Assembly: GCA_003426165.1 (NCBI GenBank)
Contig: QUAH01000007.1
Span: 43,276 to 107,275 of the forward strand
Direction: 5' to 3'
Length of the DNA: 64,000 nucleotides
Source: Candidatus Saccharicenans subterraneus
GTDB taxonomy: Bacteria > Acidobacteriota > Aminicenantia > Aminicenantales > Saccharicenantaceae
Positions 939 through 33,390 of this stretch are shown here, in pieces (positions within the stretch are counted from its first letter, which is position 1; each line of letters opens with the position of its first letter). The notes beneath the pieces were generated by a model, which made no database searches, was not told the DNA's origin, and saw only the letters and a list, made by a program, of their open reading frames with translations. The translations under genes were made by a program, and so were the position numbers.

Positions 939-965
939 GGTAAACCTCCACACAAAACTGCTTTT

Positions 966-1017
966 GGGTAGAAGTCATCAGCCGGCGGGCGATTATTGGG
1001 GAGACCTCATTCCCCGG
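966..1017 (-). ncRNA. Fluoride riboswitch (crcB motif)
   Basis: Minus strand reads GGGGAATGAGGTCTCCCC-AATAATC-GCCcgccGGC-TGATGACTTCTAC, matching the crcB pattern (P1 with GAUGRNGU loop, then the CUGAUGACUUCUAC pseudoknot end). Lies about 30 nt upstream of the antiporter ATG. Confidence 0.9.
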
Positions 1018-1029
1018 AAATGAAGCTGA

Positions 1030-1058: not shown

Positions 1059-1071
1059 GGGGGACAAATCA

Positions 1072-1095
1072 GGGGGACACGAGAGGGTGTCCCCC
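1072..1095. repeat. REP-like palindrome (GAGAGG-loop variant)
   Basis: GGGGGACAC-GAGAGG-GTGTCCCCC just past the yciI stop; a partial half-site GGGGGACA at about 1059-1066. Confidence 0.85.
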
Positions 1096-1099
1096 GTCT

Positions 1100-1402
1100 T
1101 CACTCAAACTTCATGAACGGGGCTGGCCGGATGGGGAAGATCTGGACTTTTTCCCAGACCCGGTTCAGGAGGTAAGGTTCCCTGTCCAGCCACTCTTTCC
1201 GCAGCGCTTCTTCGGATGGGAAGTCGCAGATGATTATAGAGCCGATAAGGTCCCCGGCCTCGTTCAGGATGCCGGCGGCGCACAGCCACCTGCCTTCCTC
1301 GTAAAACTTTTCTCCCTGTTTAAGGTGTTCTTCCCGGCAGCTGCGGCGGCGCTCGGGACCGGCGGGCGGTGGATAATCAAAGGCTATGACCAGGAACGGC
1401 AT
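1100..1402 (-). CDS. YciI family protein
   Basis: MPFLVIAFDY...RRSCREEHLK...AGDLIGSIIICDF...WLDREPY...KVQIFP. Probable start at 1402, internal to the 1100..1477 ORF. Confidence 0.8.
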   Translation of the reverse strand: MPFLVIAFDYPPPAGPERRRSCREEHLKQGEKFYEEGRWLCAAGILNEAGDLIGSIIICDFPSEEALRKEWLDREPYLLNRVWEKVQIFPIRPAPFMKFE

Positions 1403-1907
1403 GTTGTTTCCTTTCAATATAAAAATAAAAATATAAAGCTCACGATAATTAAAGAACATTTTCAAAGGAAAAGGCAAGGGGGAACAGTGCGAGTCGGAGT
1501 TCGGGGTGCGGTGTGCGGAACAGGCTTATCATGAGTAATAAGAAGGAAGGTTAAGACCGTTCGGGACCGAACCGAAGATACATGACTTGGGGGAGAAAGA
1601 AATATTGGATGATAGAAAGAATTATGGCATGCGGACGACTGAAGATGAAGGCACCGGATAAAACCGGATAAAAAAGGAATGGTCTACCCCCGGGATGGTT
1701 AAAGGCCCGTTCATCTTCATCATTAGAAAATATGGGCAGAGAACGGGTGAAATGACTCTGGCCAGGCCGGGCGGGGCGGACAGCCCGGCGCCCCGGGGAT
1801 ATTCTCTTATCGTTGGGGCGGGAAATGTGGCATAATAAAAGAACACCAGAAACTCAGGCTATAATGTGGTCAGTTAAAAACCAAATTAATTTCTAAAGGA
1901 AGGCAAT

Positions 1908-3095
1908 ATGGAAAAAATCGTGAGAATAGTTGATGGCATCTATTACGTCGGGGTCAATGACCGCGACACCCATCTTTTTGAAAATATCTGGCCCCTGCCC
2001 AAGGGGGTCTCCTACAATTCCTACCTGGTGGTGGACGAGCGGACGGCGCTGGTCGACACCGTCAAGCTCTGCAAGCTGAGCGCTTACCTGGAGAAAATAG
2101 GCCAGGTCCTGAACGGTCGCAGCCTTGATTTTCTGGTGGTCAATCACATGGAGCCGGACCATTCCGGGGCCCTGGCAGCGATTGTTCACGCCTACCCGGG
2201 CGTGAAGATTGTCGGCAACAGAAAGACCATCGAATTCATCAGGGCTATGTACCAGGTCGAAGCCAATTTTCATGAGGTAAAAGATGGAGACGAGCTGGAC
2301 CTCGGGCGGCGGAAATTAAGATTCTATTTAACGCCGATGGTTCACTGGCCTGAAACCATGATGACCTATGAAACAACCGGCCAGTTGCTTTTTTCGGGCG
2401 ATGCCTTCGGCGGCTTCGGCAGCCTGGACGGCGGAGTGTTCGACGATGAAGTGGACGTGAATTATTACGAGCATGAAATCAGGAGATACTATTCCAACAT
2501 CGTCGGCAAGTTCGGGCCCATGGTCCAGAAGGCATTGCAGAAGCTGTCGGCCCTGGAGGTCAAAGTGGTCTGTCCGACCCACGGGCCCGTCTGGAGGACC
2601 AATCCCGGGAGGATCGTTTCCGCTTACGACAGGTGGAGCAAGTACGAATACGAAGAGGGGGTGGTCATAGTCTACGGCACCATGTACGGCAGCACCGAGA
2701 AGATGGCCGATTACGTGGCCCGGGTGCTGGCTGACCAGGGGATTAAGAACATCCGGGTGATGAATACCTCCACCGTTCACGAATCGTTTATCATCAACGA
2801 GATCTGGCGCTTCAAGGGCGTAATTTTCGGGAGCTGCACCTACAACAACTGGATCTACCCGCCGCTGGAGAACGTGCTCATCAACCTGGCCCACAAAGGG
2901 TTGCCCAACCGGGTGTTTGGCGTGTTCGGGTCTTACGGCTGGAGCGGCGGCGGAGTCAAGGGCATCCTGGAGCATATTCAAAAGAACAACTGGAAGTTGA
3001 TAGGGGAGCCGGTGGAAGTGCAGTTTTCGGCCAGGCCGGAGGACCTGGAAAAATTGAAAAAACTGGCCCTGGACATGGCCGCGGCAGTTAAATAA
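1908..3095 (+). CDS. fprA: Flavodiiron protein (FprA/A-type flavoprotein; O2/NO reductase)
   Basis: Metallo-beta-lactamase-fold motifs NHMEPDHSG, HWPETM, FSGDAFG, PTHG, then a flavodoxin domain (YGTMYGSTEKMA, GSYGWSGGG). Confidence 0.92.
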   Translation: MEKIVRIVDGIYYVGVNDRDTHLFENIWPLPKGVSYNSYLVVDERTALVDTVKLCKLSAYLEKIGQVLNGRSLDFLVVNHMEPDHSGALAAIVHAYPGVKIVGNRKTIEFIRAMYQVEANFHEVKDGDELDLGRRKLRFYLTPMVHWPETMMTYETTGQLLFSGDAFGGFGSLDGGVFDDEVDVNYYEHEIRRYYSNIVGKFGPMVQKALQKLSALEVKVVCPTHGPVWRTNPGRIVSAYDRWSKYEYEEGVVIVYGTMYGSTEKMADYVARVLADQGIKNIRVMNTSTVHESFIINEIWRFKGVIFGSCTYNNWIYPPLENVLINLAHKGLPNRVFGVFGSYGWSGGGVKGILEHIQKNNWKLIGEPVEVQFSARPEDLEKLKKLALDMAAAVK

Positions 3096-3098
3096 ACA

Positions 3099-3195
3099 GG
3101 GGACACCTTACACTGTCCCCTTTTTTGCCCCTTTTAGCTTTAGATTTACAGGGTAAAAATTGTGATAAAAAAGGGGGACACCTTAAGGTGTCCCC
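3099..3195. repeat. REP-like doublet between convergent fprA and the 4Fe-4S gene
   Basis: GGGGACAC-CTTACA-CTGTCCCC (3099-3120) and the perfect palindrome GGGGACAC-CTTAAG-GTGTCCCC (3174-3195). Confidence 0.9.
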
Positions 3196-3214
3196 TTTTA
3201 TATGTTTCCCGCGT

Positions 3215-4225
3215 TTATTTGCTGCTCTTTATGCCGAACTTCAACAGGTCTTGATTACAGCCCCCGGTGCAGACGGTGCAGGCGAAGCAATCGGGAACCA
3301 GGACCGCATCCTTCAGTATTTCAGCTACAGCCGGGCAGGGAGACTTGGCCGCACAGGACAGGCAATCGGTGCAGGCATCTTTCTTTTTGACCACCCGGAA
3401 GATTCCAATCTGCTCAATCACATTGGTGATGAGGCCAATCGGGCAGACAAAATAGCAGAAGGGGCGGTAGGTGAAAAAGGCGAAGAACAGGGTGAGGATA
3501 AAGGGCAGGAAATGGAACAGGTTGTCCAGCAGTGTCGGTTGCAGGCTGATTTCGTACCCGTGGAAGGCGTTGATGTAATCGTAGAGGGAAAGGGCGACGG
3601 TGCGGTTGCCGGAAACGGTATGGATTATGGCCGTCCAGCTCAGAAATATAAAAGCTATAAAAATCAGCACCCGAAAGGTCTGGCTCAGGCGGAACGAGGG
3701 CTTGCGCCTCCGGATCTTGAGCCTGTCGGCCAGCATGGCGATCAGTTCCTGGATGGCTCCGACCGGGCAGACGTAGCTGCAGAACAGCTTGGGGCCAATC
3801 ACGGTCAGGAAAATTATCACGGCCAGGGTGACAATCATCGGCATCCTGAAACCGTAGAGGATAGACTTGGTGGCGGCGCAGATGGGTGAGGGGTGCATGG
3901 AAAAACCGGAGAAGACTTTAAGGCCGAGGTTGGCCGAGATACCGTAAAGAAAGGTGGACACAAGCAGGATGAGAACCTTCAGGCGGTTGTTCATCTTCCT
4001 GGTCAGCAGCAGCACCAGGGCCACGGCGGCGATTACCAGCATGGTGATGAACTTGGGGCGGAACAGAAAATCAAAAAAGTTGGGACCGGCGGCCGGACCC
4101 TGGCCCTGCCTAAGTCCCTGTCCCGGACCCCGCTGCTGCTCCTGAGCTATGGCCAGCACCGGCAGACTGAGAAAAATCGCGAACATTATCAGATATGCGG
4201 CCGGAATGATCCTTTTGGTCAGCAT
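3215..4225 (-). CDS. Membrane 4Fe-4S binding protein (NapH/MauN/YccM-like)
   Basis: Several TM helices, two CxxxCP motifs (FCSYVCPVG, FCYFVCPIG) and a C-terminal ferredoxin CTDCLSCAAKSPC...CFACTVCTGGC. Confidence 0.85.
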   Translation of the reverse strand: MLTKRIIPAAYLIMFAIFLSLPVLAIAQEQQRGPGQGLRQGQGPAAGPNFFDFLFRPKFITMLVIAAVALVLLLTRKMNNRLKVLILLVSTFLYGISANLGLKVFSGFSMHPSPICAATKSILYGFRMPMIVTLAVIIFLTVIGPKLFCSYVCPVGAIQELIAMLADRLKIRRRKPSFRLSQTFRVLIFIAFIFLSWTAIIHTVSGNRTVALSLYDYINAFHGYEISLQPTLLDNLFHFLPFILTLFFAFFTYRPFCYFVCPIGLITNVIEQIGIFRVVKKKDACTDCLSCAAKSPCPAVAEILKDAVLVPDCFACTVCTGGCNQDLLKFGIKSSK

Positions 4226-4407
4226 GGTTACCTCACTCCCTAATTTTTGTCGATATTTTAATTAGTTGTTTAGGTTATTAAAAATCTCTAAAAATGGCAA
4301 GTCAAGGGTATTCCGGGGCGCCTGGATTTCTGCCCTTACCTGCTTTTTCTTAACCATATCTTAACCGGTCATACCCTGTTTTTTAATCCGGAGCTGTTAT
4401 TCTCGAG

Positions 4408-5601
4408 GTGAACAAAGAAGAAAGGAAGATGATAAAGAAAATGAGAGCAAGCCAGGAAAAAAGAACTGACAAACAGCGGGAATTGGCCGCATACGGGGAA
4501 ATAGATATCCTGTCACGGGGAGGACGCGGGCGGAGCCTGGGCAGCCAGAGAGGAGGCTCAGGAGAACCTAAGAGCGATTTAGCAATGGGGAACGAAGATT
4601 TCGACCGGGCTGCGGGGCAAAAGCCTGCGTTAATCAGCCTGGAGACAGCGCACCCCCTGATGGAAGATGGCTGGAGAGCGGCCGACCTGCACCTTCACAC
4701 CTTCTATTCGTATGACGTCGTGCCGACTAGAGAAGTTGACCCGCTGGTGCTTTACGAGAAGGCCAGGGCCCGGGGGATGAGTTTTGTGTGTTTCACCGAC
4801 CACGACACCATGAAGGCCTACGACCGGGTTGGCTGGACGAGGGAAGGAGTGGTTACCGGAGTAGAAGTTAAGGTGCTGGACAGGAAAAGAGTTGGCCATA
4901 CGGTTCATATAAATGTCTATCTGCTGAGCCGGCAGCAGTTTGAAGAAATCGAGAAAATTGCCAGGGTGGCGGGGGATATTGAGATGCTGGTTGAGTACCT
5001 GAAAGCGGAGAATCTGCCCTTCACCTTCAACCATCCCTTCTGGCATGAGCCTGTCGAGAAGCTGAATGCGGGAGCGGTGGTGGAGCTGGCTGATGTGTTC
5101 CCGGTGCTTGAATACAACCTGGGAAGGATCGCTAAATTGAACAGGATGGTGCTGGAGCTGGCGGCGGCCAAGAGCAAGGGGGTGGTGGCCGGAACTGATT
5201 CTCAGACCGGGGATGTGGGAAGAATTTTTACCGTGGCCCGGGGAGAGAACTTCAGGGAATTTTTTGAGGCCATAAAAAGCGGAGATTCCAGGCTGGTGAC
5301 CGAAGACCTGACCTATCATCGGATCAAGAACGAAATCCGGAATCGGCTGGAGATGCTGATGGATAACCGGAGATGGGTCATGGGCAAGGAAGGATTGAGA
5401 ATGGAAACCGGCAATGCCCTGGCTGATGCCGTGATTGAAACGCTGTCGGGCGGAAGGGAAGATGTGCTGGCGGTCAAGCGAGAGGTAACGAAATTCTTAG
5501 CCAGGATAGTTTCATCGACAGGAGTGCCGGCCAGGCTTTACCTGAGAAAGCAAAACATGCTGGCCAGCCGCATCCAGCAGGAATTGAATTTAGCCCTGTA
5601 G
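4408..5601 (+). CDS. PHP-domain metallohydrolase
   Basis: ADLHLHT, FTDHDT, GVEV, HINVY, NHPFW, EYN and AGTDSQ motifs of the PHP fold; the start codon may be further downstream. Confidence 0.8.
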   Translation: MNKEERKMIKKMRASQEKRTDKQRELAAYGEIDILSRGGRGRSLGSQRGGSGEPKSDLAMGNEDFDRAAGQKPALISLETAHPLMEDGWRAADLHLHTFYSYDVVPTREVDPLVLYEKARARGMSFVCFTDHDTMKAYDRVGWTREGVVTGVEVKVLDRKRVGHTVHINVYLLSRQQFEEIEKIARVAGDIEMLVEYLKAENLPFTFNHPFWHEPVEKLNAGAVVELADVFPVLEYNLGRIAKLNRMVLELAAAKSKGVVAGTDSQTGDVGRIFTVARGENFREFFEAIKSGDSRLVTEDLTYHRIKNEIRNRLEMLMDNRRWVMGKEGLRMETGNALADAVIETLSGGREDVLAVKREVTKFLARIVSSTGVPARLYLRKQNMLASRIQQELNLAL

Positions 5602-5672
5602 ATTCAAGGGTTGATATGATTTTTGTCTTGGTAGAAGTCACCACTTTTTAATACCCCCCTTTTTTCCTGACC

Positions 5673-5701
5673 GTGGTCCGAGCCCGAAAGGGTCGGACCA
5701 C
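5673..5701. terminator. Strong GC hairpin with GAAA tetraloop downstream of the PHP gene
   Basis: GTGGTCCGA-G-CCC-GAAA-GGG-TCGGACCAC; no U-tract directly after it, so the function is uncertain. Confidence 0.4.
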
Positions 5702-5707
5702 ATAAAT

Positions 5708-5812
5708 GGGGACACCTTACAGTGTCCCCATTTTCCTTCTCGTTAAGTATATTATTTTCAACACATTAGAATAGGGCTGATAGAAGAAAAAGGGACACCT
5801 AACGGTGTCCCC
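5708..5812. repeat. REP-like doublet upstream of the first diguanylate cyclase
   Basis: GGGGACAC-CTTACA-GTGTCCCC (5708-5729) and GGGACAC-CTAACG-GTGTCCCC (5792-5812). Confidence 0.9.
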
Positions 5813-5874
5813 TTTTTTCACTTTTTTATATTATAATCGGGAAGGTAAATATAAGGCTGACTGGGGAGGGCAGA

Positions 5875-7245
5875 ATGAAGAGCATAACCGGAAGCGTGGT
5901 TAGAGACCAGCTCATTTTTATGCTGGGCTTTGGACTGCTGATGGGGATAATCTTTCCTTTCTTTACCCTCTGGCTGCTGAAACTTCCGGCCGGTAGGGTA
6001 TTGACGCCGCTATTTTTTTCGATGTGCATCCTGGCCGGGCTGATCGTGGGCCTGTGCAACTATTTAATTTTTCGTGGTGTGGTCCACCGGTTTCTTTCAG
6101 GGCTGTCGGCCAGGATGGGACTCTTTCAGGCCAAGCTCGAAGCCTACCGGGCCGACCCGGCCTCTTCGGAAAAATGCCGCGCCGAAGACTGTTACGTGGA
6201 GGCTTCCTCGGCCGATATTCTGGGCACGATTTCCGGTGATTTCAATAACCTGATTGCCTCGGTGGCCAATTTTGTCGAGGTGGAGAGGACCACTGATAAC
6301 TTCCTGGATAAGTTGAAGCGAAGCCTGAAACTAGAGGACGTGGCCGCGGTGGTGCTGGATACCTTCAGCGACTACTTCGGCGGCCAGGGGAGCTTCCTCC
6401 TGGTCCTGGAAAGAGGGGAATTCCGTCTGGTCAGAAGCCAATCTGTTGACATCAAGAAGGAGCAGATTGATGATAATTTCTGGCACGAACTCTTGAAGCA
6501 GGGTAAGCCACTGGTGGTTTCAGGGATAGAAGGTGATGCCGTTCATCTGGACATCGGGGTGGGTCAGCTTGATCCCCGGCACATAGCCCTGATTCCCCTT
6601 AAGTACCAGAATGAGGAGGTTGGAGTGTGCGGACTGGTTTCCAGGGAGCCCTTCAAGCATGATTTCGCCACCCTGGAGGCCAGGAATTTTATATTTCAGG
6701 CCACTCCCTTTATATACAATGCCCTGATCATGAAGAGGCTGGAGGTGATGGCGGCCATTGATGAGCTGACCGGGGTCCTCAACCGCAGGTTCGGGTTGAG
6801 GCGCCTCAACGAAGAGTTCGAGCGTTCGAAGCGTTACCGGATGCCCCTGTCCGTGGCCATGGTGGACATCGATTATTTCAAGAAGATAAACGATACCTAC
6901 GGATACCAGGCTGGAGACTTTGTCCTGAAAACCCTGGCCGGAGTCTTCACCCATAACATCAGGGTTTCGGATCTGGTTATCAGGTTCGGTGGAGAAGAAT
7001 TTCTGCTGGTGTTCAACGGGGCTTCGGCCGTTGATGCTTACCAGATAATGGAGAAATTGAGGGCCGCCGTCGAAACCATGCGCCTGCAGTACGGAGCCTT
7101 TGATTTTAAGGTCACCTTCAGTGCCGGCGTGGCCAGTTTCCCGTCTGACAAGGTGAGCGACCTGGCCAGCCTGATTCACCAGGCAGATTCCGGGCTTTAC
7201 AAGGCAAAGGAAACCGGTCGGAACCGCACGGTGATTAGTGGCTGA
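5875..7245 (+). CDS. Membrane diguanylate cyclase (2 TM, GAF-like, GGDEF)
   Basis: DELTGVLNRR, DIDYFKKINDTYG, I-site RVSD, active site RFGGEEF, ADSGLYKAKETGRNR. Confidence 0.92.
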   Translation: MKSITGSVVRDQLIFMLGFGLLMGIIFPFFTLWLLKLPAGRVLTPLFFSMCILAGLIVGLCNYLIFRGVVHRFLSGLSARMGLFQAKLEAYRADPASSEKCRAEDCYVEASSADILGTISGDFNNLIASVANFVEVERTTDNFLDKLKRSLKLEDVAAVVLDTFSDYFGGQGSFLLVLERGEFRLVRSQSVDIKKEQIDDNFWHELLKQGKPLVVSGIEGDAVHLDIGVGQLDPRHIALIPLKYQNEEVGVCGLVSREPFKHDFATLEARNFIFQATPFIYNALIMKRLEVMAAIDELTGVLNRRFGLRRLNEEFERSKRYRMPLSVAMVDIDYFKKINDTYGYQAGDFVLKTLAGVFTHNIRVSDLVIRFGGEEFLLVFNGASAVDAYQIMEKLRAAVETMRLQYGAFDFKVTFSAGVASFPSDKVSDLASLIHQADSGLYKAKETGRNRTVISG

Positions 7246-7249
7246 AAAA

Positions 7250-7427
7250 GGGGACACCTTAAAGTGTCCCCATTTTCCTGTCCGTTATATTTATCATTTA
7301 CAACGTCTTAGAAACGGCACTCCATAAGAAAAGGGGACACCCAAAGGTGTCCCCTTTTTGCTGGGGGCGGTACGATTTTTCCCCGAGAAATCAGGCTCAA
7401 AATTCGGGGACACCTTACAGTGTCCCC
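7250..7427. repeat. REP-like triplet
   Basis: GGGGACAC-N6-GTGTCCCC at 7250-7271 (loop CTTAAA), 7333-7354 (CCAAAG) and 7406-7427 (CTTACA). Confidence 0.9.
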
Positions 7428-7529
7428 TTTTTCCTTCTCCGGGTGAACTTTAATAGCGCCATTTTCGTTTATAGGGTTGATGCCTGGAAAGGTTGAGCTT
7501 GAAACATTATGCGAAGGAATGTGGTTAAC

Positions 7530-10256
7530 ATGGCAAAAAAAGAAGTGATCCTGTCAACGGCAGTGGTTTTAATCCTGTTTATTCTTTTGAGCTTGTCTGG
7601 TTTAAGGGCTGCCACCGGAAACAAGCCACCGGCAAAATCCGCCGATATCGATAAGGAAGCCCTGAAAAAGGCCCAGGAACAGAAGGTGGTCAGAGCCATA
7701 CGGCTGAAGGAGCCTATCAGACTTGACGGCCTGCTGGAAGAAGAGGTCTGGAAGAAAAATGAACCGGTCAGCGATTTTATTCAGCGCGACCCGGTCGACG
7801 GGGCCCCGGCTACGGAGAAGACCGAAGCCTGGGTGGCCTATGACGAAGCCAATCTCTATGTCGCCGCTTACTGTCACGACTCGGACCCGAAAGGGATAGT
7901 TGGCCTGCTTGGCCGCCGCGATTCCTTCGTGGAGTCGGACTGGTTTTTCTTTGCGGTGGATCCGTATTTTGACCGGCGCAGCGGGTTCCTGTTCGGCGTT
8001 AATCCTTCCGGGTCCATTGTGGATGAAGTCCTTTTCAACGATATCAGCGAGGATGAAACCTGGGACGGAATCTGGGAGGCAAAAGTGGCCCGGGTGGCTG
8101 ATGGCTGGACCCTGGAAATGAAAATTCCCTTCAACCAGCTCCGTTTCCCGCGGAAAGAGACTTATACCTGGGGTGTTAATTTCAAGCGCACCATCAAACG
8201 CAAGCAGGAAAGGGTGTCCTTTGCCTGGGTACCGAAAGAAGATAGTGCCCATGTCTCCCGCTTTGCCAGGCTGGAGGGAATCGAGAGTATCAACCCGGGC
8301 CGGCGGGTGGAGCTCTATCCCTATTCGGTGGGACAGGCCCAGTTTCGCCCGGCTGAACCTGGCAATCCTTTCGAGACCGGACACAAATACCTGGGCAATG
8401 CCGGCTTTGACCTGAAGGTCGGGCTGAAGAGCAACCTCAACCTTGATGTCAGCATTAACCCTGATTTCGGTCAGGTAGAAGTTGACCCGGCGGTCATCAA
8501 CCTGAGCGCCTACGAGACCTATTACCAGGAAAAGAGGCCGTTCTTCATCGAGGGGGCATCGATGTTCAACCATTTCGGCCGGGGTGGCGTTTATGTGAAC
8601 GCCAACATCAACTGGCCGAACCCGAGATTCTTTTACAGCCGGAGAATAGGACGGGCACCCCAGGGGTACCCGGTTCATGAGGGCTACTCAAATTTCCCGG
8701 ACAGGACCACCATCCTGGGAGCTTTCAAGCTGACCGGGAAAATTGGTTCGGGCTGGAACGTCGGCCTTATCAGCGCGGTCACGGCCCGGGAATTCGCCAC
8801 GGTCGATGACCTCGAAGAGCAGTACAAAGACGAGGTTGAACCGCTTTCCTATTACGGTGTCCTGCGGGCTCAGAAAGAGATCAAGGATGGTCAGCACGGG
8901 ATTGGCTTCATGGCCACGGCTGTGGTCAGGGACCTGGACAGTGAAATCCTAGCCGCCATTCTCAACAGGCGGGCTTTCAGCCTGGCCATGGATGGCTGGT
9001 CTTTCCTGGATAAGAAGAGGACCTGGGTGGTCGGCGGCTGGCTGGGCGGAACGTTCATCCAGGGTAGCCAGGAAGATATTTACCGCCTGCAACAGTCGTC
9101 AATGCACTATTTCCAGAGACCGGATGCCACGCATGTCAGCCTCAACCCGGAGGCCACCAGCCTGAACGGCTGGGCCGGGCAGTTCAAGCTGGCCAAGCAG
9201 CAGGGCCATCACCTGTTCCTGCTGTCGGCCGGCGCCCTGTCTCCGGGATTTGACCCCAACGATGTTGGCTTCCAGAGTTCAGGCTCGGATGTGGTGGATA
9301 TCATGGGGCTCTATGGATACCAGTGGACCAGGCCGGGAAAGATCTTTCGGGAGTGGACCGCTATTATGGGCGGGTCGGTCCAGTATGATTTCGGCGGCAA
9401 TCGCACCTTCAATTGCCTGGCGACCAGTTTTCAGGGCGTGCTGAAAAACTGGTGGAATTTCGAGTATACATTTATCTACGTGCCCGAGGCTCTGAGCAAC
9501 CGCCTGACGCGGGGCGGACCGCTGGCCCTTTCACCTTATGGAGTGATGAACCAGCTGTTTGTAAATAGCGATTCCAGGCAACCGGTGGTTTTGCAGGGAA
9601 GCATATCCTACCAGTGGGCTCACAACGATTCCAGGGAATGGATGGCCGATTTTTCGGTGCGCTGGAAGCCAAGGACCAATTTGAGCCTGTCGGTCGGGCC
9701 GATGGTTAGCTTTTCCAGGAACGAAACCCAGTGGGTGAGGAAAGTGACGGATGCGCTGATGACCGAGACTTTCGGTGCGCGCTACATTTTCGGGCGGATC
9801 GACCAGAGGATTGTGGCCAGCGAAATCAGGATCAACTGGATTTTTACGCCGACGCTCAGCCTCCAGGCTTATTTGCAGCCATTCATTGCTGTGGGCAAGT
9901 ACGACCGGTTCAAGCAGCTCAACCGGCCCAGGGCCTATGATTACCTGGTGTTCGGGGAGGGCGGTTCGACCATCAGCGAGGAGGACGGTCGATACCTGGT
10001 CGACCCGGACGGGGACGGGCCGGCAGCTTCATTCTATATCTATAACCCGGATTTCAACTATAAATCGATGCGGGGCACGGTGGTGCTGAGGTGGGAATAC
10101 CGGCCGGGGTCGCTGCTGTACCTGGTCTGGACTCAGAACCGGGCAGATTTCAGCTACCCGGGGCAGCTGTCGCTGTGGCGAGACCTGGGCAACCTGTTTA
10201 CCGCCCCCGGCGACAACATCTTCCTGGTGAAATTTTCCTACCGCTTCAACCTCTAA
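7530..10256 (+). CDS. CBM9-like/DUF5916 family outer-membrane protein
   Basis: Signal peptide; N-terminal LDGLLEEEVW...PATEKTEAWVAYDEANLYVA...WTLEMKIPFNQLRF; INPDFGQVEVD...EKRPFFIEG...FYSRRIG; C-terminus FLVKFSYRFNL. Start placed at MAKK (7530); the ORF track starts at 7509. Confidence 0.8.
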   Translation: MAKKEVILSTAVVLILFILLSLSGLRAATGNKPPAKSADIDKEALKKAQEQKVVRAIRLKEPIRLDGLLEEEVWKKNEPVSDFIQRDPVDGAPATEKTEAWVAYDEANLYVAAYCHDSDPKGIVGLLGRRDSFVESDWFFFAVDPYFDRRSGFLFGVNPSGSIVDEVLFNDISEDETWDGIWEAKVARVADGWTLEMKIPFNQLRFPRKETYTWGVNFKRTIKRKQERVSFAWVPKEDSAHVSRFARLEGIESINPGRRVELYPYSVGQAQFRPAEPGNPFETGHKYLGNAGFDLKVGLKSNLNLDVSINPDFGQVEVDPAVINLSAYETYYQEKRPFFIEGASMFNHFGRGGVYVNANINWPNPRFFYSRRIGRAPQGYPVHEGYSNFPDRTTILGAFKLTGKIGSGWNVGLISAVTAREFATVDDLEEQYKDEVEPLSYYGVLRAQKEIKDGQHGIGFMATAVVRDLDSEILAAILNRRAFSLAMDGWSFLDKKRTWVVGGWLGGTFIQGSQEDIYRLQQSSMHYFQRPDATHVSLNPEATSLNGWAGQFKLAKQQGHHLFLLSAGALSPGFDPNDVGFQSSGSDVVDIMGLYGYQWTRPGKIFREWTAIMGGSVQYDFGGNRTFNCLATSFQGVLKNWWNFEYTFIYVPEALSNRLTRGGPLALSPYGVMNQLFVNSDSRQPVVLQGSISYQWAHNDSREWMADFSVRWKPRTNLSLSVGPMVSFSRNETQWVRKVTDALMTETFGARYIFGRIDQRIVASEIRINWIFTPTLSLQAYLQPFIAVGKYDRFKQLNRPRAYDYLVFGEGGSTISEEDGRYLVDPDGDGPAASFYIYNPDFNYKSMRGTVVLRWEYRPGSLLYLVWTQNRADFSYPGQLSLWRDLGNLFTAPGDNIFLVKFSYRFNL

Positions 10257-10355
10257 AAGAGGGGACACTTGCAAGTGTCCCCTCTTTCGTCCTTTTTTAT
10301 GCACTTTTCCCCTTAGAATTCTGTCCTGAATCCGGGGACACCTGCAGCTGTCCCC
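10256..10355. repeat. REP-like doublet at the RAYT left flank
   Basis: AAAGA-GGGGACAC-TTGCAA-GTGTCCCC-TCTTT (32-bp perfect palindrome, 10256-10287) and GGGGACAC-CTGCAG-CTGTCCCC (10334-10355). Confidence 0.9.
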
Positions 10356-10414
10356 AAAAGAAAATTCTATGACTTTGATAAATAAAACAAGTTTCTTGCG
10401 TCTTATTATGTGTT

Positions 10415-11107
10415 ATGCCAAGGATAAAAAGGATAATATTTCCAAACGCCCCACATCATATTATCCAGCGCGGGAATAGGAATCAAAATGTTTTTTTCAC
10501 GGATGATGACAAACAACTCTATCTAGAAATCTTGAACCATAAATCCCGTCTTGAAAGAGTAAAGATCTGGTGTTATTGCCTTATGGATAATCATGTTCAT
10601 ATGATCGCCGTTCCTGAAGATGCTGCGAGTCTGAGAAGGGCTATTTCTGAAACCCATAAAAAATATACCCTTCTTATCAACATCAGGAACAATTGGAAGG
10701 GGCATCTCTGGCAGGGACGTTTTATTTCCTATCCAATGGATGAAACATATCTTTACCGGTGCATGCGATATATCGAACGCAATCCGGTTAGGGCTGGACT
10801 TGTTAATCGTGCTGAAGATTATAAGTGGTCAAGTGCCAGAGCTCATGCATTAAATATTAATGATGGTCTGTTGAGTCCGATACCTCTGGCCTATAGTGTG
10901 GAAGACTGGAAGAGTTATTTAAGCGAAACGGAATGCGAGCATGACCTGAAAACCTTTCGACAGAGTAACGGGAGCGGAGTGCCGCTGGGAAGCGAGACTT
11001 TTATAAAAAGACTTGAAGCAGAACTTGGAATAAACTTGAACTGGCGAGATCAAAAGCGGGGAAAAGAAGAGGACACTGTAGATCCCCAATCTGGCTATCT
11101 GCTTTAG
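10415..11107 (+). mobile_element. REP-associated tyrosine transposase (RAYT; Y1_Tnp, IS200/IS605-superfamily HUH nuclease)
   Basis: MPRIKR...HHIIQRGNRNQNVF, YCLMDNHVH (HUH), HLWQGRF, YIERNPVRAGLV...YKWSS. Visibly more AT-rich than its neighbours; REP doublets on both sides; no tnpB. Confidence 0.9.
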
Positions 11108-11160
11108 AACGGGAATGGAATGAAGATCAGCAGAAAAGAAGAAAAAAAAAAAGGAAAAAC

Positions 11161-11261
11161 GGGGACACCTGCAAGTGTCCCCATATACAGGCATAGGTTT
11201 TAAGGCAGAGAAAACAACCAAAAAGGTAAAAAGAGGGGACACTTGCAGGTGTCCCCTCTTT
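11161..11261. repeat. REP-like doublet at the RAYT right flank
   Basis: GGGGACAC-CTGCAA-GTGTCCCC (11161-11182) and AAAGA-GGGGACAC-TTGCAG-GTGTCCCC-TCTTT (11230-11261). Confidence 0.9.
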
Positions 11262-11269
11262 ATTTGTTG

Positions 11270-13126
11270 TTATTTGTCGGAGAAGGCGAAGACGCTGAGG
11301 TAACCCAGCCTGATCACCCGGCTGAGCAGCTCGCCCGAGGCCTTGTCCGGGCTATCACCGGTCAGGTGATAGTCGGGATGCATGGCCGTCATGTAATAAA
11401 CATACGGTTTCTTGACCGCGGCAAACGAGGAGTGGTCCGAACCACCGCCGCCCTGGCCCAGCTCCGGCTCCCTGATGAACAGGTCCAGCCCGACGTACTT
11501 ATTCATCTCCTGCTGGATCTCGTAGAAGCCTGAATCTTTGGTGGCGTTGACTGTAACGAAATAAGCCGGCCGGATCTGCTTGACCAGGTCTTCCACCCCC
11601 TGCACTTTGAACATATTGGCATAGCGGGCGAACGTCTGTTCGTCGAAGGCCCGGCTGATCATATCGTAATTCAGGTAGCCGACCGTCTTTTCCATGGGGA
11701 AGGTCGGGTTCTGCACATAGTACCTGCTTCCCAGCAAACCCTTTTCCTCGCCCGTCCACAGGCAGAAGACGATACTCCTCTTCGGCTTGACGGGATTGAG
11801 GGCCATGGCCCTGGCAATGGCGATCACTCCGACCGATCCCGAGGCGTTATCATCCGACCCATTAAAAATATAATCTTCCCACGCGCCCAGGTGGTCAAAA
11901 TGCGCCCCGAGCACGAAGTATTCGTCCTTGAGCTTCGGGTCCGAGCCCTCGATGTACCCGATGACATTCATGGCCCTGACCAGGTTGGCCTTCACCGTGG
12001 AATTGAGGCTGACCCTGACTCCGGGCAGCTCACGGGAAGCAGGCTTGTAGGTGCTCTCTATGGCCTGCTTCAATTCGTCTATCGTCTTCCCGCTGTTTTC
12101 CAGGATGAGGTTGGCCATTTCCCTGGTTATGGTCAGGGTGGGCACGTTGCTTCCGCCCATCATGCCGGCCATCGTGTCGCGGCTACCAGGAATGACCATC
12201 CTGCTCCGGGGCCGGTTGATGATCGGCCTTTCGTCATTCGGGCGCCGGTTCTGGGCCGCCGTCAGCATGTTGTAAATGTCCGTATCTTTCCCGGTGTTCT
12301 GCACCACCAGCACCGCGGCCGGCGACTGCTTGTAAATCTCTTCCAGCTTGTTGAATCCCCGGCCGCCCCTTCTCATGAACATCATCTGCATGGCCTGGGC
12401 CTGAGGGAAATATTTTTCTTTGAGTTCCTTGGTCTTGTTGAACGGAGACTTAGGGTCGTCTTTGCCAGGAGCCTCGCTCAGCACCAGGACGATCTTGTCC
12501 TTCAGGTTCAGCCCCTTCAGCTCGTCCCAGCCCGCGGCCGGTTCTTTGATGCCATAGCCGGCAAAGACCACCGGGCCGCTCAGGTCTTCATCGGAAGACA
12601 GGGTGCTCATGAAATCGACGCCGCTTTCGAAGGTCCTGGCCTTGGTGAAACCAGCCCTGGTCACCTCGACCTTGACCGAAGCCCGGCTGTCGGTAATTTC
12701 CTTCAGGGTGAATTCCTGGAAGTAGCTGCGCTCCATGGACATGGCCTGCCTGGAACTCTGGCCGGCCATGGCCCTGGCAATATTGACATCGGCCCTGGGC
12801 AAATCACCTCCCGGCTTGACTCCCCACATCTTGAACAGGGAGACAACGTAATCCGCGGCCATGGCGTAACCGCGGCTGGCGGTATCCCTTCCCTCCATCC
12901 AGTCAGAGGCCAGATAGTTCAGCATGGACAGGGTATCCCGGGGAGTGATGGACTCGAAGCCCACCTTATACTTCTCGGGAACCGGTTCCGTCTTGGAAAC
13001 CAGGTTAAGGGCTCTCTTCACCTCTTCCGGCTTCATCTGCTGCTGGGGCGGCATCTGGGCCAGGGAAAAGGAAAAAGCCAGCAAGACCGCCGCTACCAGC
13101 AGGATGGGTAACAGTCGCTTTCTCAT
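11270..13126 (-). CDS. Secreted M28 family metallopeptidase with PA domain
   Basis: Signal peptide MRKRLLPILL (RBS GGAGG); GAHFDHLG, NGSDDNASGSVGV, TGEEKGLLGS, NYDMI, GGSDHSSF, HPDYHLTGD. Confidence 0.9.
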   Translation of the reverse strand: MRKRLLPILLVAAVLLAFSFSLAQMPPQQQMKPEEVKRALNLVSKTEPVPEKYKVGFESITPRDTLSMLNYLASDWMEGRDTASRGYAMAADYVVSLFKMWGVKPGGDLPRADVNIARAMAGQSSRQAMSMERSYFQEFTLKEITDSRASVKVEVTRAGFTKARTFESGVDFMSTLSSDEDLSGPVVFAGYGIKEPAAGWDELKGLNLKDKIVLVLSEAPGKDDPKSPFNKTKELKEKYFPQAQAMQMMFMRRGGRGFNKLEEIYKQSPAAVLVVQNTGKDTDIYNMLTAAQNRRPNDERPIINRPRSRMVIPGSRDTMAGMMGGSNVPTLTITREMANLILENSGKTIDELKQAIESTYKPASRELPGVRVSLNSTVKANLVRAMNVIGYIEGSDPKLKDEYFVLGAHFDHLGAWEDYIFNGSDDNASGSVGVIAIARAMALNPVKPKRSIVFCLWTGEEKGLLGSRYYVQNPTFPMEKTVGYLNYDMISRAFDEQTFARYANMFKVQGVEDLVKQIRPAYFVTVNATKDSGFYEIQQEMNKYVGLDLFIREPELGQGGGGSDHSSFAAVKKPYVYYMTAMHPDYHLTGDSPDKASGELLSRVIRLGYLSVFAFSDK

Positions 13127-13725
13127 GTAAACCTCCATTGATTTATAAAGGGTGAATTTTGGGACTCGGGGGAGAGAAACAATAGAAGAAATATAAAAAA
13201 ATCCACATCACAACTTTTGACGCAACTTGTCATTATTTCTTCCATTATACACCCCATAAATTCTAATGATCAGGTCGGATTCTTTCTCCCATTTCCTCAC
13301 TATCTGAGCCGGCCACTATATAAATAAGATTCAGAAATGAAACCGTTAATATTGGTACCTGGTGGAGCAATCGAGGGCCCGTAGGTCTTGAATTGAAACA
13401 TAGACTTCCATAGCTTCTGATCCTGCCGCTGGCCAGCCCGGAATTATTGGCCCGGCCAGCTTGAGATTCCATGGCAGGACCTGAGTTCCGTTTTCCGGCT
13501 GCCCCGCTTCTGTCACATTGAGGAAAAAATCTGCCTCTTGCTCCCGGTTTTGATCCGGGTCCGTCTCCATATCTTAGAATGGGCCTCTTTAGGTCAGCCG
13601 AAGAATCGAAATGGAGGCTGCTTGGCCGAAATTTATTTATCAGTCTTATCGGATCTAGCCCTGCTCTTAATTCAAAATCTTCTTGTTCCCGGCTCTCGGT
13701 CAGTTTCAGCAGGGGAAGGGCCGCT

Positions 13726-16700: not shown

Positions 16701-17703
16701 TTTCGCGCCTTTGCCAGAAGAGCTCGGTCAGGGTTAACTGGACGATGATCAGTGATATCATGAACAGGATAATAAGGGTAGAGCGCTTGTACCAGCTGGA
16801 TAGCGCTTCTGCCTTGTCTATTTTGGATACGATGGACCAGCAGGTATTGGGTACAGGGGTCAGGTAGGACATCACTTTCTGTCCGCGGTAATCTACCCCC
16901 TCGAATTCGCCGTACTCACCCAGGACAGCCCTGACCGCCGGGATTTCCTTGCGGCTGAGGGGAAAGCGCAGTTGCAGGGCCGTTTCTTTGCGGTGCCGGA
17001 GCTCGTTTAGAAAAACTACTTCCTCGCCCTCCCTTTTTACCAGGGCGGTCTCGGCGGTGGCGGAGTGAAAAGGCCAGGTCTGTATCAGCGGGAACAGGAA
17101 GTCTTTAGCGTCCACGGTTAAGACCACAAAGGCTTCGGCCTGCTTTTTCTGGCTCCCAGGACGAAAGATTGGAGCAATAAAATCAATATGGATAATATTT
17201 TCGTCCGCGTGAGCATGAAGGTCAGAGTTGACCACAGTCCCGTACTGCTCGGCCCGTTTCAAGTCCTCCATCAGGATTTGTGTCAGCCTGGCCGGCGGTA
17301 TTCCGCCGTAACTGATGACGGGCTCCCTTTTTTTATTGAGAATCATTATCCTGGCGTAGCCGTAGGTTCGGGCGGCCAGAGCCAGACGGGCCTTGATCTT
17401 TTCCAAGCTTTCGGAGTCGGGTTTTTTGAGCACCTCCAGCAGGCCGGAGGAGAAAAACGGGCTCTCGGTCATGACCAGGGCATCGCCCTTTCTCTCATCC
17501 AGCCACTGCCTGATGTCAGCGGCTTTCATTTCGGCGATGGAAGACAACTGCTGGTAGGTGATTCTTTTAACTTCTTTTTCCTGGTTGTGCCGCAAAGATA
17601 GTCCGGCGACCAGTATGATGATGATCAGAAGAAAAGAAACAATGTACAGCGGGCTTTTCAGCCGTTTTTGCCATTTTGGCCAGAGAGTCTGAAAGCTTCT
17701 CAT
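13726..17703 (-). CDS. Membrane multi-PAS sensor histidine kinase (Cache-like, PAS/PAC x6, HisKA_2, HATPase)
   Basis: Two TM helices around a periplasmic domain; repeated PAS/PAC segments; [12 protein letters not shown]; [12 protein letters not shown]; DDGVGLP; SLGL. Confidence 0.9.
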
Positions 17704-17787: not shown

Positions 17788-20076
17788 TCATGTTTCTCCT
17801 TGATCTTTTCCGGCAGCCCTGACCCGGTTGCGACCTTCTTTCTTGGCTCGAAGCAGGGCCAGGTCGGCGGCCTGGACCAATTCCAGGCCCCTTTCGCCAT
17901 GCTCGGGATAGGAAGCTACCCCGACCGAAATTGTAATGTTTTGAATGATGGTGTTGCCCTGGACGAGCTCCAGGTGCCTGACCGAGTTCAGGATCATTTC
18001 GGCCCTGGCCAGGGCTTTTTCCAGGGACAGGCCAGGCATGATGACGGTGAACTCCTCGCCACCGTAGCGGCAAACGATATCTTCCGACCTGACAGCCCGC
18101 TGCAGGGTCCTGGCTATCATCTGCAGGAAATAATCGCCGGCCTCGTGGCCATAAAAATCGTTTATCTTTTTGAAATGGTCGAGGTCGGCCATGATCACCG
18201 ACACCGGCTGCCCGGCCCGCCTGGCCCGGGTGAGTTCCCGGTCCATGGTTTCTTCCAGGTAGCGACGGTTGTAAAGGCCGGTCAGGGGGTCCCGGATTGA
18301 CTGTTCTTTAAGCGATTGCTGCAGCTTGATGTTGGCCAGGGACATGGCCGTCCTCTGGGCAAAGCTCAGCATCAAATCTTTTTTCTGCCTGGAGGTTTCC
18401 AGGAAATCGGGACCGCGGGCGCTTTTGCTTTTTTCTGGACAGCAGAAGAAAACCAGCAGGCCCAGGGTTTCTCCAGCCGAGGATAGGGGCAGGCAGGCAG
18501 CCATCTGGTTGGGCGGTAGAGAGCCTTTGAGATGCGGGCAGAGCAGGTCTTTTTCCGGGTCCTGAAAGAAGCTGGGCATGGATTTCTTTAAGGCCCAGCA
18601 ATCATTGACCTCCAGGAGGTCAACCGGTGGGGAAGGGGGCTTAAGGGCACAGGACAATTCCAGGAATTTCCCCCGGTCGCGGCGCAGGTAGAGAAGGCAG
18701 CCCTCCTCTGGAAAGAGCTTCAGGGCGTAGCGCTTGATCACCTCGATGGCTTCCTCTTCCGAGCCGGCAATCTGGAAGTTGTCGCCCATCTCCAGCAGCA
18801 GCCGGTTCTGCTCGTTTCTTTTTTCCAGCTCGGTGATGACCTCTTCCAGTCTTTGCTTGGCCTCGGACAGGGCCAGTTCCTGTTTCTTTCGCTCGGTGAT
18901 CTCGGTCATCACGGCCAGGGTGGAGACGAACTGACCGTTGGGGTCGAATTCTGGCGCGGCATTGACGATGACCGTCTTCCGGCTGCCGTCGGCCAGAGTC
19001 AGTTCCAGGTCATAAACATCGCGCAGTCCCTGCCGTCGCCTGTGGGTCTGGTCCCTGATCAGCTCAAACTGCTGGGGGGAGGTGAATTCTTTCAGGTTTC
19101 TTCCTTCCAGTTTTCCCTCAAAGTCGTTAAAGATGCGCCGGGCAGCCTGGTTGGCAAAGAGAATGTTTTCATCACGGTCGACGATAACCACCCCTTCTCC
19201 CAGGGTCTCGACCATGTTTCTGAAAAGTTCTTCGCTTTCCTTTAATTTCTGGGCGATGGCTTCCTTCTGGGCAACCTGGTCCCTGAGTTCCCGGGTCCTT
19301 TCTTCAACCCTGGTTTCCAGGGTTTCCCGGGCCTCCTTGAGTTTATTGAGAGATGCCTCCAGCTCGTCCAGCATGGTGTTGAAACTCCGGGCCAGCACCC
19401 CGACCTCGTCCGAGGTCTGAACCTCGGCCCGGAGAGAGAAATTGCCGCCGGCTATCTCCCTGGCCGTCCGGGCCATCTGGCGAAGCGGCCGGCTGACCAG
19501 CCGGCTGAGAAAATAGATGATAACCAGCCCGAGAAGGAAAATAATCACCGCTGACAGCCAGATGACTCTTCTGATGTGTCCCAGGAGATGATTCAGGTCC
19601 CTCAGGGACAGGCCGATGGCCACGTAGCCGATGGCTTTCCCCTCGACGCTTATCTGCTGATACTGGTTCAGGTGCTGGTTGGAGGGCAACAAGCCACTGC
19701 GGCGGACTTCCTCCGGGTTGATGATTACCTCCCGGGTCCGCTGGTACCTGGCCACTTCCCGGCCGGTGGAATCAAAAACAAAGACGTAATCCACGACCGG
19801 GCTCTGGCTCAGGCTGGCAAAGACTTCCTCCATGGCCTGCCGGTCATCAAAGACAACAGCCGGGGCCAGGCTATGGGCAGCGATCAGGGCTATGGAGCGG
19901 CCTTTATCCTCAAGGGCCCGGAGCGCCTCCCGGCGGTACCAGTAAGGTGTCAGGATTGAAATTAGAACGCTGATGATTATCAGAAAGGGAAAAGAAATGA
20001 GCATGAACTTGAAGACAATTTTTTTTCTGAGGGAGGAAAAAAGAGTGCTTTGACCGGGTCGGTTTTCTTCAGCCAT
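17788..20076 (-). CDS. Diguanylate cyclase (TM, HAMP, PAS, GAF, GGDEF; YfiN-like)
   Basis: HAMP SDEVGVLARSFNTML; RDPLTGLYNRRY; DLDHFKKINDFYGH; I-site RSED; RYGGEEF. Confidence 0.92.
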   Translation of the reverse strand: MAEENRPGQSTLFSSLRKKIVFKFMLISFPFLIIISVLISILTPYWYRREALRALEDKGRSIALIAAHSLAPAVVFDDRQAMEEVFASLSQSPVVDYVFVFDSTGREVARYQRTREVIINPEEVRRSGLLPSNQHLNQYQQISVEGKAIGYVAIGLSLRDLNHLLGHIRRVIWLSAVIIFLLGLVIIYFLSRLVSRPLRQMARTAREIAGGNFSLRAEVQTSDEVGVLARSFNTMLDELEASLNKLKEARETLETRVEERTRELRDQVAQKEAIAQKLKESEELFRNMVETLGEGVVIVDRDENILFANQAARRIFNDFEGKLEGRNLKEFTSPQQFELIRDQTHRRRQGLRDVYDLELTLADGSRKTVIVNAAPEFDPNGQFVSTLAVMTEITERKKQELALSEAKQRLEEVITELEKRNEQNRLLLEMGDNFQIAGSEEEAIEVIKRYALKLFPEEGCLLYLRRDRGKFLELSCALKPPSPPVDLLEVNDCWALKKSMPSFFQDPEKDLLCPHLKGSLPPNQMAACLPLSSAGETLGLLVFFCCPEKSKSARGPDFLETSRQKKDLMLSFAQRTAMSLANIKLQQSLKEQSIRDPLTGLYNRRYLEETMDRELTRARRAGQPVSVIMADLDHFKKINDFYGHEAGDYFLQMIARTLQRAVRSEDIVCRYGGEEFTVIMPGLSLEKALARAEMILNSVRHLELVQGNTIIQNITISVGVASYPEHGERGLELVQAADLALLRAKKEGRNRVRAAGKDQGET

Positions 20077-33360: not shown

Positions 33361-33390
33361 AATCAGGGACACGAGAGCGTATCCCCCTTT
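33361..33390. repeat. Degenerate orphan REP copy
   Basis: AAATCAGGGACACGAGAGCGTATCCCCC aligns with AAATCAGGGGGACACGAGAGGGTGTCCCCC at about 1066-1095; it sits at the stop of the GT2 gene. Confidence 0.65.

Follow-up and report, generated by a model that had tools for sequence, protein, structure and literature searches.

Several described systems pair a tyrosine transposase with short palindromic repeats. In Escherichia coli, TnpA-REP (YafM; PMC3479197), a single-domain Y1 nuclease of the HUH type, binds the hairpin of the repetitive extragenic palindrome (REP); its gene is flanked by REP doublets, and REPs lie at the 3' ends of transcription units. In Pseudomonas fluorescens SBW25, a cluster of REP doublets (REPINs) lies beside each REP-associated tyrosine transposase (RAYT) gene (Bertels & Rainey 2011, PMC3116915), and in Thauera and three marine gammaproteobacteria, REPs have 'accumulated proximally' to the rayt gene, new copies being suggested to be 'preferentially produced in its vicinity' (Nunvar et al. 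2010, PMC2817692). A further branch, subclass 2.1 (group 1 of Bertels), is characterized by the motifs NHVH, W[EQ] and YIELNP, an SS tail and a median length of 238 aa (Quentin et al. 2018 Table 1, PMC6006769), and is equated in that survey with the terminal inverted repeat-associated tyrosine transposases, the 'TIRYT' class of Di Nocera et al. 2013. The inverted repeats flanking TIRYT genes have the consensus GGGG[AT][CG]A[CG] (PMC6006769), also written GGGGWSAS (PMC3733652); they can be self-complementary, occur in dimers or clusters and are moderately abundant, and Acidobacteria have a sharply defined TIRYT group (PMC3733652). Here we describe a locus in a 64,000-nt stretch of Candidatus Saccharicenans subterraneus (GCA_003426165.1, contig QUAH01000007.1, positions 43,276 to 107,275 of the forward strand; hereafter the window), in which a Y1 transposase gene stands at one end of a run of palindromes. 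We consider it probable (about 0.72) that this locus is a transposase-and-repeat system of the RAYT/REP kind belonging to the TIRYT ('TIRtron') branch.

The palindromes share the form GGGGACAC-N6-GTGTCCCC (22 nt). Scanning the whole window for exact and mismatched matches to this pattern revealed 12 copies, all within positions 1073-11256, including nine exact copies and three with one mismatch (starts at 1073, 3099, 3174, 5708, 5791, 7250, 7333, 7406, 10261, 10334, 11161 and 11235). By chance, zero exact matches are expected (shuffled window) compared to the nine observed, and palindrome arms account for 21 of the 23 GGGGACAC octamers that the window contains. Elsewhere in the window, the sole other family member is a degenerate single palindrome with two mismatches and a GAGAGC loop (33365-33386); a three-mismatch match at 29410 is probably due to chance. 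Of the non-divergent gaps of at least 30 nt, all six to the left of position 11300 hold palindromes compared to none of the 25 to its right (Fisher p = 1.4e-6), and both divergent gaps on the left are empty (0 of 2). No copies were found in the adjoining 9.3 kb on the left (L003; L-numbers denote fetched contig stretches) or 8.6 kb on the right (L150), leaving all 12 confined to 10.2 kb within an 82-kb stretch formed by the window and both flanks. These results confirm that the cluster is real and highly non-random. An earlier reading of the window from its letters (the original prediction) had placed 12 palindromes in the first 11.3 kb, in every non-divergent gap and in neither divergent one, with one degenerate copy in the remaining 52 kb, and had called the local clustering steep. 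All of this stands, with two of its positions moved by one base (1072 to 1073 and 5792 to 5791).

Most copies form doublets with a start-to-start spacing of 73-75 or 83 nt. From left to right, the cluster comprises a single palindrome with a GAGAGG loop directly after the yciI stop codon (1073-1094); a doublet in the convergent gap between the FprA-like and Fer4_5 genes (3099-3195; copies at 3099 and 3174); a doublet of the 83-nt spacing type between the PHP and GAF-GGDEF genes (5708-5812; 5708 and 5791); a triplet with spacings of 83 + 73 between the GAF-GGDEF and DUF5916 genes (7250-7427; 7250, 7333 and 7406); and one doublet on either side of the transposase gene, facing the DUF5916 gene on the left (10261-10355; 10261 and 10334) and the M28 peptidase gene on the right (11161-11256; 11161 and 11235). 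The right doublet is an inverted copy of the left one, and the transposase gene is therefore bracketed by inverted two-palindrome modules of ~100 nt. In the whole unit of ~1 kb (10256-11261), each side runs inward from an outer palindrome through a linker to an inner palindrome, with the gene in the middle. Linker identity between the left module and the reverse complement of the right is 0.71-0.75 (null maximum, 0.66), and the inverted arrangement is supported by an alignment across five genomes. Further module copies fill the 3' gaps of five or six genes, all on one side of the transposase.

Many copies are perfect 22-nt palindromes, with the loops CTTAAG, TTGCAA or CTGCAG. Loop type tracks position: the GAGAGG loop at 1073 falls in one sub-family with the GAGAGC-loop copy at 33365, loops resembling CTTAMR occur at copies 3099 to 7406, and YTGCAR loops are found in the four copies that surround the transposase gene. 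Compared with shuffled sequences, the single-stranded doublets give much better folds (z = -5.3 to -8.6); three of the six fold as one long hairpin in which the palindromes pair mutually and three as two local hairpins, with similar energies. Flanking sequence is rich in A on the 5' side and in T on the 3' side, and no GTAG head was found beside the palindromes. No Rfam family accounts for them; sub-threshold matches to BTnc231, mir-35 and CsrC are generic hairpin matches. The linkers at 5730-5790 and 7272-7332 contain a CAAC-N3-TTAGAA-like core with a loose likeness to an integration host factor (IHF) site, comparable to the E. coli bacterial interspersed mosaic element BIME-1. We rejected an IHF-like site WATCAANNNNTTR in the linkers of the 83-nt spacing type, as their shared part is only this core and is not invariant across genomes. 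The GAGAG(N)-loop sub-family recurs as singletons rather than doublets in several Aminicenantes genomes (L085:7666, L091:3685, L119:3098 and 4559, alongside 1073-1094 and 33365-33386 in the window), including copies with the reverse-complement loop ACTCTC (L009:2806 and L019:5046).

The transposase gene (10415-11107, plus strand) encodes a protein of 230 aa that matches Pfam Y1_Tnp (E = 5e-12). Its catalytic residues are H60-V61-H62 and Y119, accompanied by W99-Q100 and S139-S140. Because its motifs (NHVH at 59, WQ at 99, YIERNP at 119 and SS at 139) match subclass 2.1 and the palindrome arm GGGGACAC fits GGGGWSAS exactly, we assign the transposase, by sequence, to the TIRYT/subclass 2.1/group 1 branch and not to the classical RAYTs of GTAG-headed REPs. 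The original prediction of a RAYT flanked by its own REPs is borne out insofar as this is a Y1 transposase of the REP-associated type with cognate palindromes, and is refined by this assignment. A sequence search of the PDB returned E. coli TnpA-REP with its REP hairpin as the top match (4ER8; E = 4e-4, 21% identity). The same structure was the top Foldseek match (E = 1.2e-8) to an AlphaFold2 model built from 58 homologs (predicted local distance difference test (pLDDT), 88.3; predicted template modelling score (pTM), 0.85), followed by the ISDra2 and IS608 transposases. A homolog search retrieved 3504 proteins at E <= 1e-10, and the named top matches were all annotated 'transposase' and came from Saccharicenans, Aminicenantes or Acidobacteriota. 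Residues N59, H60, H62, Y119, E121, N123, P124, S139 and S140 are invariant in 121 homologs. The ratio of nonsynonymous to synonymous divergence (dN/dS) versus relatives is 0.07-0.11, which indicates that the gene is under purifying selection. Compared with one close relative (L129), the transposase gene has a dS of 0.058 (0.20 in neighbouring genes) and a dN of 0.021 (0.010 in neighbours), possibly as a result of recent exchange or just of small numbers.

How does the locus compare with the described systems? With the TIRYT systems (PMC3733652; subclass 2.1, PMC6006769; group 1, PMC5581495) it has in common the motifs NHVH, WQ, YIE[LR]NP and SS, a length of ~230-238 aa and flanking inverted repeats with GGGGWSAS. 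It differs in having 22-nt hairpin palindromes in ~100-nt doublet modules spread over many 3' gaps, as REPs are. Subclass 2.1 is listed without REP-like sequences nearby (PMC6006769), whereas the repeats here are REP-like in every descriptive respect. The host, a member of the Aminicenantes, is also different, and the C-terminal domains published for the class as helix-turn-helix-like (namely Bac_DnaA_C, HTH_23 and HTH_28) gave no Pfam match in this protein even at E <= 1; the model has a confident helical tail there (residues 165-215), in which G192 and F196 are invariant. Like E. coli TnpA-REP, its best match in both sequence and fold, the protein is a single-domain Y1 enzyme whose gene is flanked by palindrome doublets, with further palindromes at the 3' ends of transcription units. 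In addition to the low identity (21%), differences from TnpA-REP include the missing GTAG head, an extra helical C-terminal tail of ~90 aa and terminator-like T-tracts. The resemblance to the REPIN-RAYT systems of Pseudomonas (PMC3116915; bioRxiv 10.1101/2021.07.10.451892) lies in the doublet as the apparent unit, a spacing near 70-110 nt, the predicted ability of a doublet to fold as one long hairpin, a cluster adjoining the transposase gene, vertical inheritance of that gene in the same extragenic space and the disappearance of the repeats where the gene has been lost. In contrast to REPINs, each repeat here is a full palindrome, so that an inverted orientation of the pair is undefined, the linker is asymmetric, few copies were seen and the enzyme belongs to another RAYT group.

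Next, we compared the locus with those of relatives using tblastn and maps of open reading frames. Six species-level relatives share the window's gene order and have palindromes in the matching gaps, as seen in L066/L129 (98% amino acid identity), L127 and L022 (about 91%), L120 (87%), L072 (84%), L122 (82%) and L078. Synonymous divergence of neighbouring genes between the window and L127 or L120 is saturated (dS about 1.05-1.1). Nonetheless, exact arms are present in 7 of 9 palindromes in L127 and 7 of 16 in L120, with most others differing at one base, and orthologous linkers are 0.69-0.92 identical (null 95th percentile, 0.59). Because arms and linkers are conserved despite saturated synonymous sites, these comparisons indicate that the doublets are old and inherited in place, and that the arm sequence, rather than just the hairpin, is actively maintained. 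In the Thauera and marine gammaproteobacterial cases (PMC2817692), repeats are likewise piled up beside the transposase gene and not spread genome-wide; those cases were read as recent acquisitions, whereas the present cluster is old and conserved gap by gap. The transposase itself occupies the same gap, between the DUF5916 and M28 peptidase genes, from 98% down to 65% identity, and by this evidence it has been inherited vertically.

Three orthologous loci lack the transposase (L123, L124 and L125/L126), and no palindrome was found in the 8.9-21.8 kb available for each (21.8 kb for L124). Searches for recurrent hairpins in L123, L124, L125 and the outgroups were also negative, and distant M28 relatives (54-59% identity) share neither the synteny nor the palindromes. 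In L124 (M28 81% identical), the M28 and DUF5916 genes are 38 nt apart, the 984-nt block of palindromes, gene and palindromes is absent, and the gap contains a single ordinary two-way terminator hairpin, GGGGCACAGCAATGTGCCCC. A neighbour-joining tree of the M28 protein (no bootstrap) nests the transposase-free lineages among the palindrome-bearing ones, which implies two losses. As these comparisons show, gene and palindromes are jointly absent at the locus, matching the co-dependence described for REPIN-RAYT systems, in which repeats are gone where the RAYT is lost (bioRxiv 10.1101/2021.07.10.451892; PMC2817692). The single hairpin in the L124 gap (11879-11898), of the form GGGGCACA-GCAA-TGTGCCCC, has arms that differ from GGGGACAC by paired compensatory changes, a pattern that relaxed sequence constraint with the terminator structure kept would produce.

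A deeper relative (L146/L147; M28 73% and DUF5916 77% identical) carries a transposase that is 65% identical in the same DUF5916/M28 gap. There, a terminal repeat of 20 nt, GGGACACAATCTATATTTCC, borders the gene in place of 22-nt palindromes, with the same terminus of 7-8 nt, and pairs of ~220 nt that resemble miniature elements also flank it. Seven perfect copies of the 20-nt repeat lie in both orientations within 6 kb around the transposase in L146 (5323+, 5790-, 6472+, 9920+, 10701+, 10902- and 11008-), at gene 3' ends and mostly on the DUF5916 side. An independent lineage whose repeats take another form thus shows the same pile-up close to the gene. In the transposase-free L125/L126, an inverted pair of the GGGACACAATCTATATTTCC repeat is retained in the same gap. 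A paralog in L144 is flanked by GGGGACAGTTC... repeats, and a second transposase in the close relative A05DMB19 (L148, 57% identical) is flanked by GGGGGACACAATACTCATTCAC pairs that share the GGGGACAC terminus. Repeats of the L146, L148 and L144 orthologs and paralogs all end in GGGGACAC or GGGGACAG and fit GGGGWSAS. Short palindromes may therefore be collapsed pairs of terminal repeats with the same terminus, and the locus may record the birth of REP-like palindromes from TIRYT terminal inverted repeats, a scenario that we put forward tentatively and that is somewhat more likely to be wrong than right.

To place the family in a wider context, we scanned a collection of species-representative genomes for the pattern. 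The resulting counts are lower bounds, and about half of the rows are chance matches in high-GC actinomycetes. Among the matches listed, the same palindrome occurs in many Aminicenantes and Saccharicenans genomes, mostly as doublets ~74 nt apart. A05DMB19 (JANLFU01; about 98% protein and 93% DNA identity) carries the orthologous locus on contig 7. Taken together, the family is dispersed and cluster-forming, and the transposase neighbourhood is one of its clusters, for A05DMB19 the largest among the matches listed. The same arms with a TTTAAA loop were observed in several Omnitrophota (L015, L020, L030, L040, L060, L082, L096, L098 and L106) and in L034, where a 49%-identical transposase homolog is encoded 3-4 kb from the palindromes. 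More than one phylum may therefore share the repeat signature. The palindrome is also present in three contigs of CAZDZU01, labelled 'uncultured Eubacteriales' (L083, L084 and L090), one of which (L083) also has orthologs of Fer4_5 (64% identical) and PHP (79%) that are divergent as in the window. Either a wrong label or contamination of this bin with Aminicenantes DNA is probable.

In the mechanism that we propose, the transposase, which we take to be domesticated, most likely maintains the palindromes. The enzyme would recognize single-stranded DNA folded into the GGGGACAC-armed hairpin, as the REP is recognized by E. coli TnpA-REP, would cut it and would occasionally make or renew palindrome copies. 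New copies may settle preferentially near the gene and beside existing copies; such preferential local insertion would account both for the steepness of the local clustering and for the differences in copy number from gap to gap. At gene 3' ends, where insertion would be tolerated, the palindromes would persist, and together with their A- and T-tracts they could act as two-way intrinsic terminators or 3' stabilizers of single-gene units. Local seeding of REPs, one of two explanations offered in the original prediction, is plausible: it fits the cluster, has a precedent (PMC2817692) and is the best-supported reading, with the copying step itself deduced by homology. Repeat pile-up near such genes and the idea of local production have been known since 2010; what is new is the lineage, and a subclass 2.1 enzyme with REPs.

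Several observations weigh against this interpretation. Cleavage, copying and local insertion are all steps that we infer from homology. The protein scores 65.5 bits against the NCBIfam model REP_Tyr_transpos (NF047646), below its cut-off of 80, and its repeats lack the GTAG head. Among the matches listed, A05DMB19 also has doublets on contigs 1, 2 and 4, and its two transposases are both candidates for servicing the palindromes. Equally dense runs of genes alternating with palindromes occur in fetched contig pieces that contain no transposase gene (Ch100 contig 13, with 13 copies in 16 kb; UBA10528 contig 79; MFD13492 contig 55), and proximity to the gene is therefore not the sole determinant of clustering. 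The genome-wide copy number is a lower bound drawn from listed matches in genomes other than the source genome. Finally, comparison of the window with its 93%-identical relative revealed no presence/absence polymorphism of palindromes, which implies that any turnover is slow.

One alternative is that local DNA processes (unequal recombination, replication slippage and gene conversion) enlarged the cluster, and that the transposase was domesticated for another role or keeps only its flanking copies. Palindrome numbers per gap vary among bearers by what could be tandem addition (2, 3 or 5 in the gap between the GAF-GGDEF (diguanylate cyclase, DGC) and DUF5916 genes; 2 or 3 in PHP/DGC; 2 or 4 in FprA/Fer4). 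In L127, one doublet linker (17214-17339) has a short internal triplication of CTAAGAGGGGA-like units, and in L120, palindromes abut merely 30 nt apart (15667/15697 and 15858/15888); in these cases, growth of the modules seems to have taken place in situ. Identity between the paralogous modules at 5708 and 7250 is 77%, and loops are homogenized within genomes, being uniformly CTGCAG in L022 and mostly so in L127, with position-dependent sub-types in the window. Group 1 RAYTs have also been described as not clearly REP-associated (PMC5581495; PMC6006769). Such processes leave unexplained the dispersal of doublets to other contigs, the exact conservation of the arms and the joint absence of gene and palindromes, and we consider this explanation unlikely. 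A candidate case of a unit moved across the GGDEF gene (window 7333-7427 compared with the PHP/DGC gap of L127) was rejected, as its linker identity of 0.65 is within the null (maximum, 0.66).

We also considered whether the palindromes are ordinary intrinsic terminators that share a stem by chance and have no relation to the transposase. With A-runs 5' and T-runs 3' of the palindromes, they have the predicted form of intrinsic terminators, a GC-rich hairpin followed by a T-tract at gene 3' ends, and nine of the 12 copies were flagged by a terminator scan, in one or both directions. All copies lie at 3' ends and none in divergent gaps, and transposase-free L124 has its single two-way terminator hairpin in the homologous gap. 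However, terminators do not keep one and the same 16-nt arm sequence at 12 sites and in species whose dS exceeds 1, and the regular doublet spacing and homologous linkers are not terminator-like either. Furthermore, the 25 other 3' gaps in the window and the orthologous gaps of transposase-free relatives have no palindrome, and the arm is the repeat signature of subclass 2.1/TIRYT transposases. A chance resemblance among terminators is accordingly very unlikely, whatever terminator activity the palindromes may have. Less credible still is the idea that the palindromes are double-strand sites for a dimeric regulator or nucleoid protein co-regulating six genes: many are perfect palindromes, but they lie downstream of genes and never in promoter gaps, adjoin unrelated genes in relatives and have no linked regulator gene among nine proteins searched with Pfam.

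The second explanation in the original prediction was an integron-like hotspot, in which the HUH enzyme captures, excises or shuffles single-gene cassettes bounded by palindromes. Like an integron, the locus is a run of functionally unrelated genes that stand singly, with a structured repeat after each, and it adjoins a gene for an enzyme of a kind that acts on single-stranded DNA hairpins. Using Pfam profiles on nine proteins, we identified a Na_H_Exchanger-family gene (to 938, minus strand), YCII (1100-1402, minus), an FprA-like gene with ODP and flavodoxin domains (1908-3095, plus), Fer4_5 (3215-4225, minus), PHP (4408-5601, plus; just below the cut-off), GAF-GGDEF (5875-7245, plus), DUF5916 (7509-10256, plus), the transposase and Peptidase_M28 (11270-13138, minus). 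The original calls of YciI, FprA, 4Fe-4S, PHP, DGC and DUF5916 genes are confirmed by these matches. Integrons have an IntI integrase and attI/attC sites; here, no integron integrase domain was detected in the nine proteins and no attC-like site was found, orientations are mixed (- + - + + + + -, with two divergent promoter gaps) and genes have their own promoters.

Gene content is conserved among relatives, which argues against capture. L120 is colinear with the window from FprA to beyond MscL, with the FprA-to-M28 order unchanged despite saturated synonymous divergence, and L127, L129 and L022 share the window's order from PHP or DGC on. With gene order kept at 82-98% protein identity and palindromes in the same gaps, the outcome is the one that the original prediction had named as refuting it, and capture is largely refuted. 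The genes between the palindromes (1100-10256), whose order is conserved in relatives, are best regarded as resident, ordinary chromosomal genes and not captured cassettes. Palindrome-bearing gaps differ between genomes only in palindrome number. Content differences among palindrome-bearing genomes amount to three, none of which is at a palindrome. The first is a clean 2.8-kb indel (window 17884-20699 compared with L129 5232-5276) with palindrome-free borders, which contains a CHASE8-HAMP-PAS-GGDEF gene and a YfiR/DUF4154 gene and is absent from L129 (93% identical DNA) and L127. The second is the end of L129 DNA homology at window position 4631, inside PHP, and the third is an esterase gene in the divergent PHP/Fer4 gap of L127. 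At the second site, the PHP protein (window 4408-5601 compared with L129 17539-18750) is only 81% identical compared to 98-99% for neighbouring proteins, and Nitro_FeMo-Co, DUF5320 and CGGC-domain genes replace the Fer4/FprA/YciI side in L129; this break looks like a recombination boundary.

Two further observations could be taken to favour gene shuffling. Single-gene rearrangements separate palindrome-bearing from palindrome-free lineages: the M28 gene is inverted in L123 and L125/L126, and L125 has PHP and Fer4 in exchanged order, with an esterase in place of the GGDEF gene. Several of these breakpoints, on anecdotal evidence, fall in gaps that have palindromes or terminal repeats in other lineages. 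Homologous recombination between perfect 22-nt repeats in both orientations would explain such occasional inversions and deletions. The other observation is a 1003-nt Logan contig from another sample (L002; ERR15459720), which spans approximately window 10258-11261 and ends at the outer palindromes. We rejected the reading of this contig as an excised circle and regard it as an assembly artefact, since perfect palindromes of 32 nt form its ends and would break a 31-mer assembly graph. Many transposase homologs also occur on contigs of 0.85-1.4 kb, which would be expected from assemblies broken at flanking repeats; in practice, the palindromes appear to break short-read assemblies. Against capture, similar runs of genes and palindromes also occur in related genomes, on fetched contig pieces that contain no transposase gene. 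Overall, integron-like capture or shuffling was not borne out and is highly improbable, and the locus reveals no new gene-capture mechanism.

At the left end of the locus, we observed a fluoride riboswitch (window 962-1023, minus strand; Rfam RF01734, 43.4 bits for a gathering score of 34, E = 2e-9). The Na_H_Exchanger-family gene, whose start at 938 lies directly downstream of it, is therefore probably fluoride-responsive. The single palindrome at 1073 sits between this riboswitch, of which it is upstream, and the yciI stop codon.

The TIRYT-type transposase and its palindromes extend REP-transposase systems to the Aminicenantes, an uncultured lineage widespread in sediments and bioreactors, and to subclass 2.1/TIRYT, which has been surveyed as not REP-associated. 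Gap-by-gap conservation at saturated synonymous divergence is clean evidence for maintenance of the arm sequence, and the orthologous loci, which hold long terminal repeats, short palindromes, relic repeats or nothing, provide a natural series for the birth and decay of REPs. If the proposed origin from terminal inverted repeats is correct, enzymes of subclass 2.1/group 1 would maintain true REP populations, although the literature lists none. These REPs would spread preferentially to 3' gaps on one side of their own gene, doubling as terminators, and after loss of the gene the hairpin may survive as structure alone, as in the L124 hairpin.

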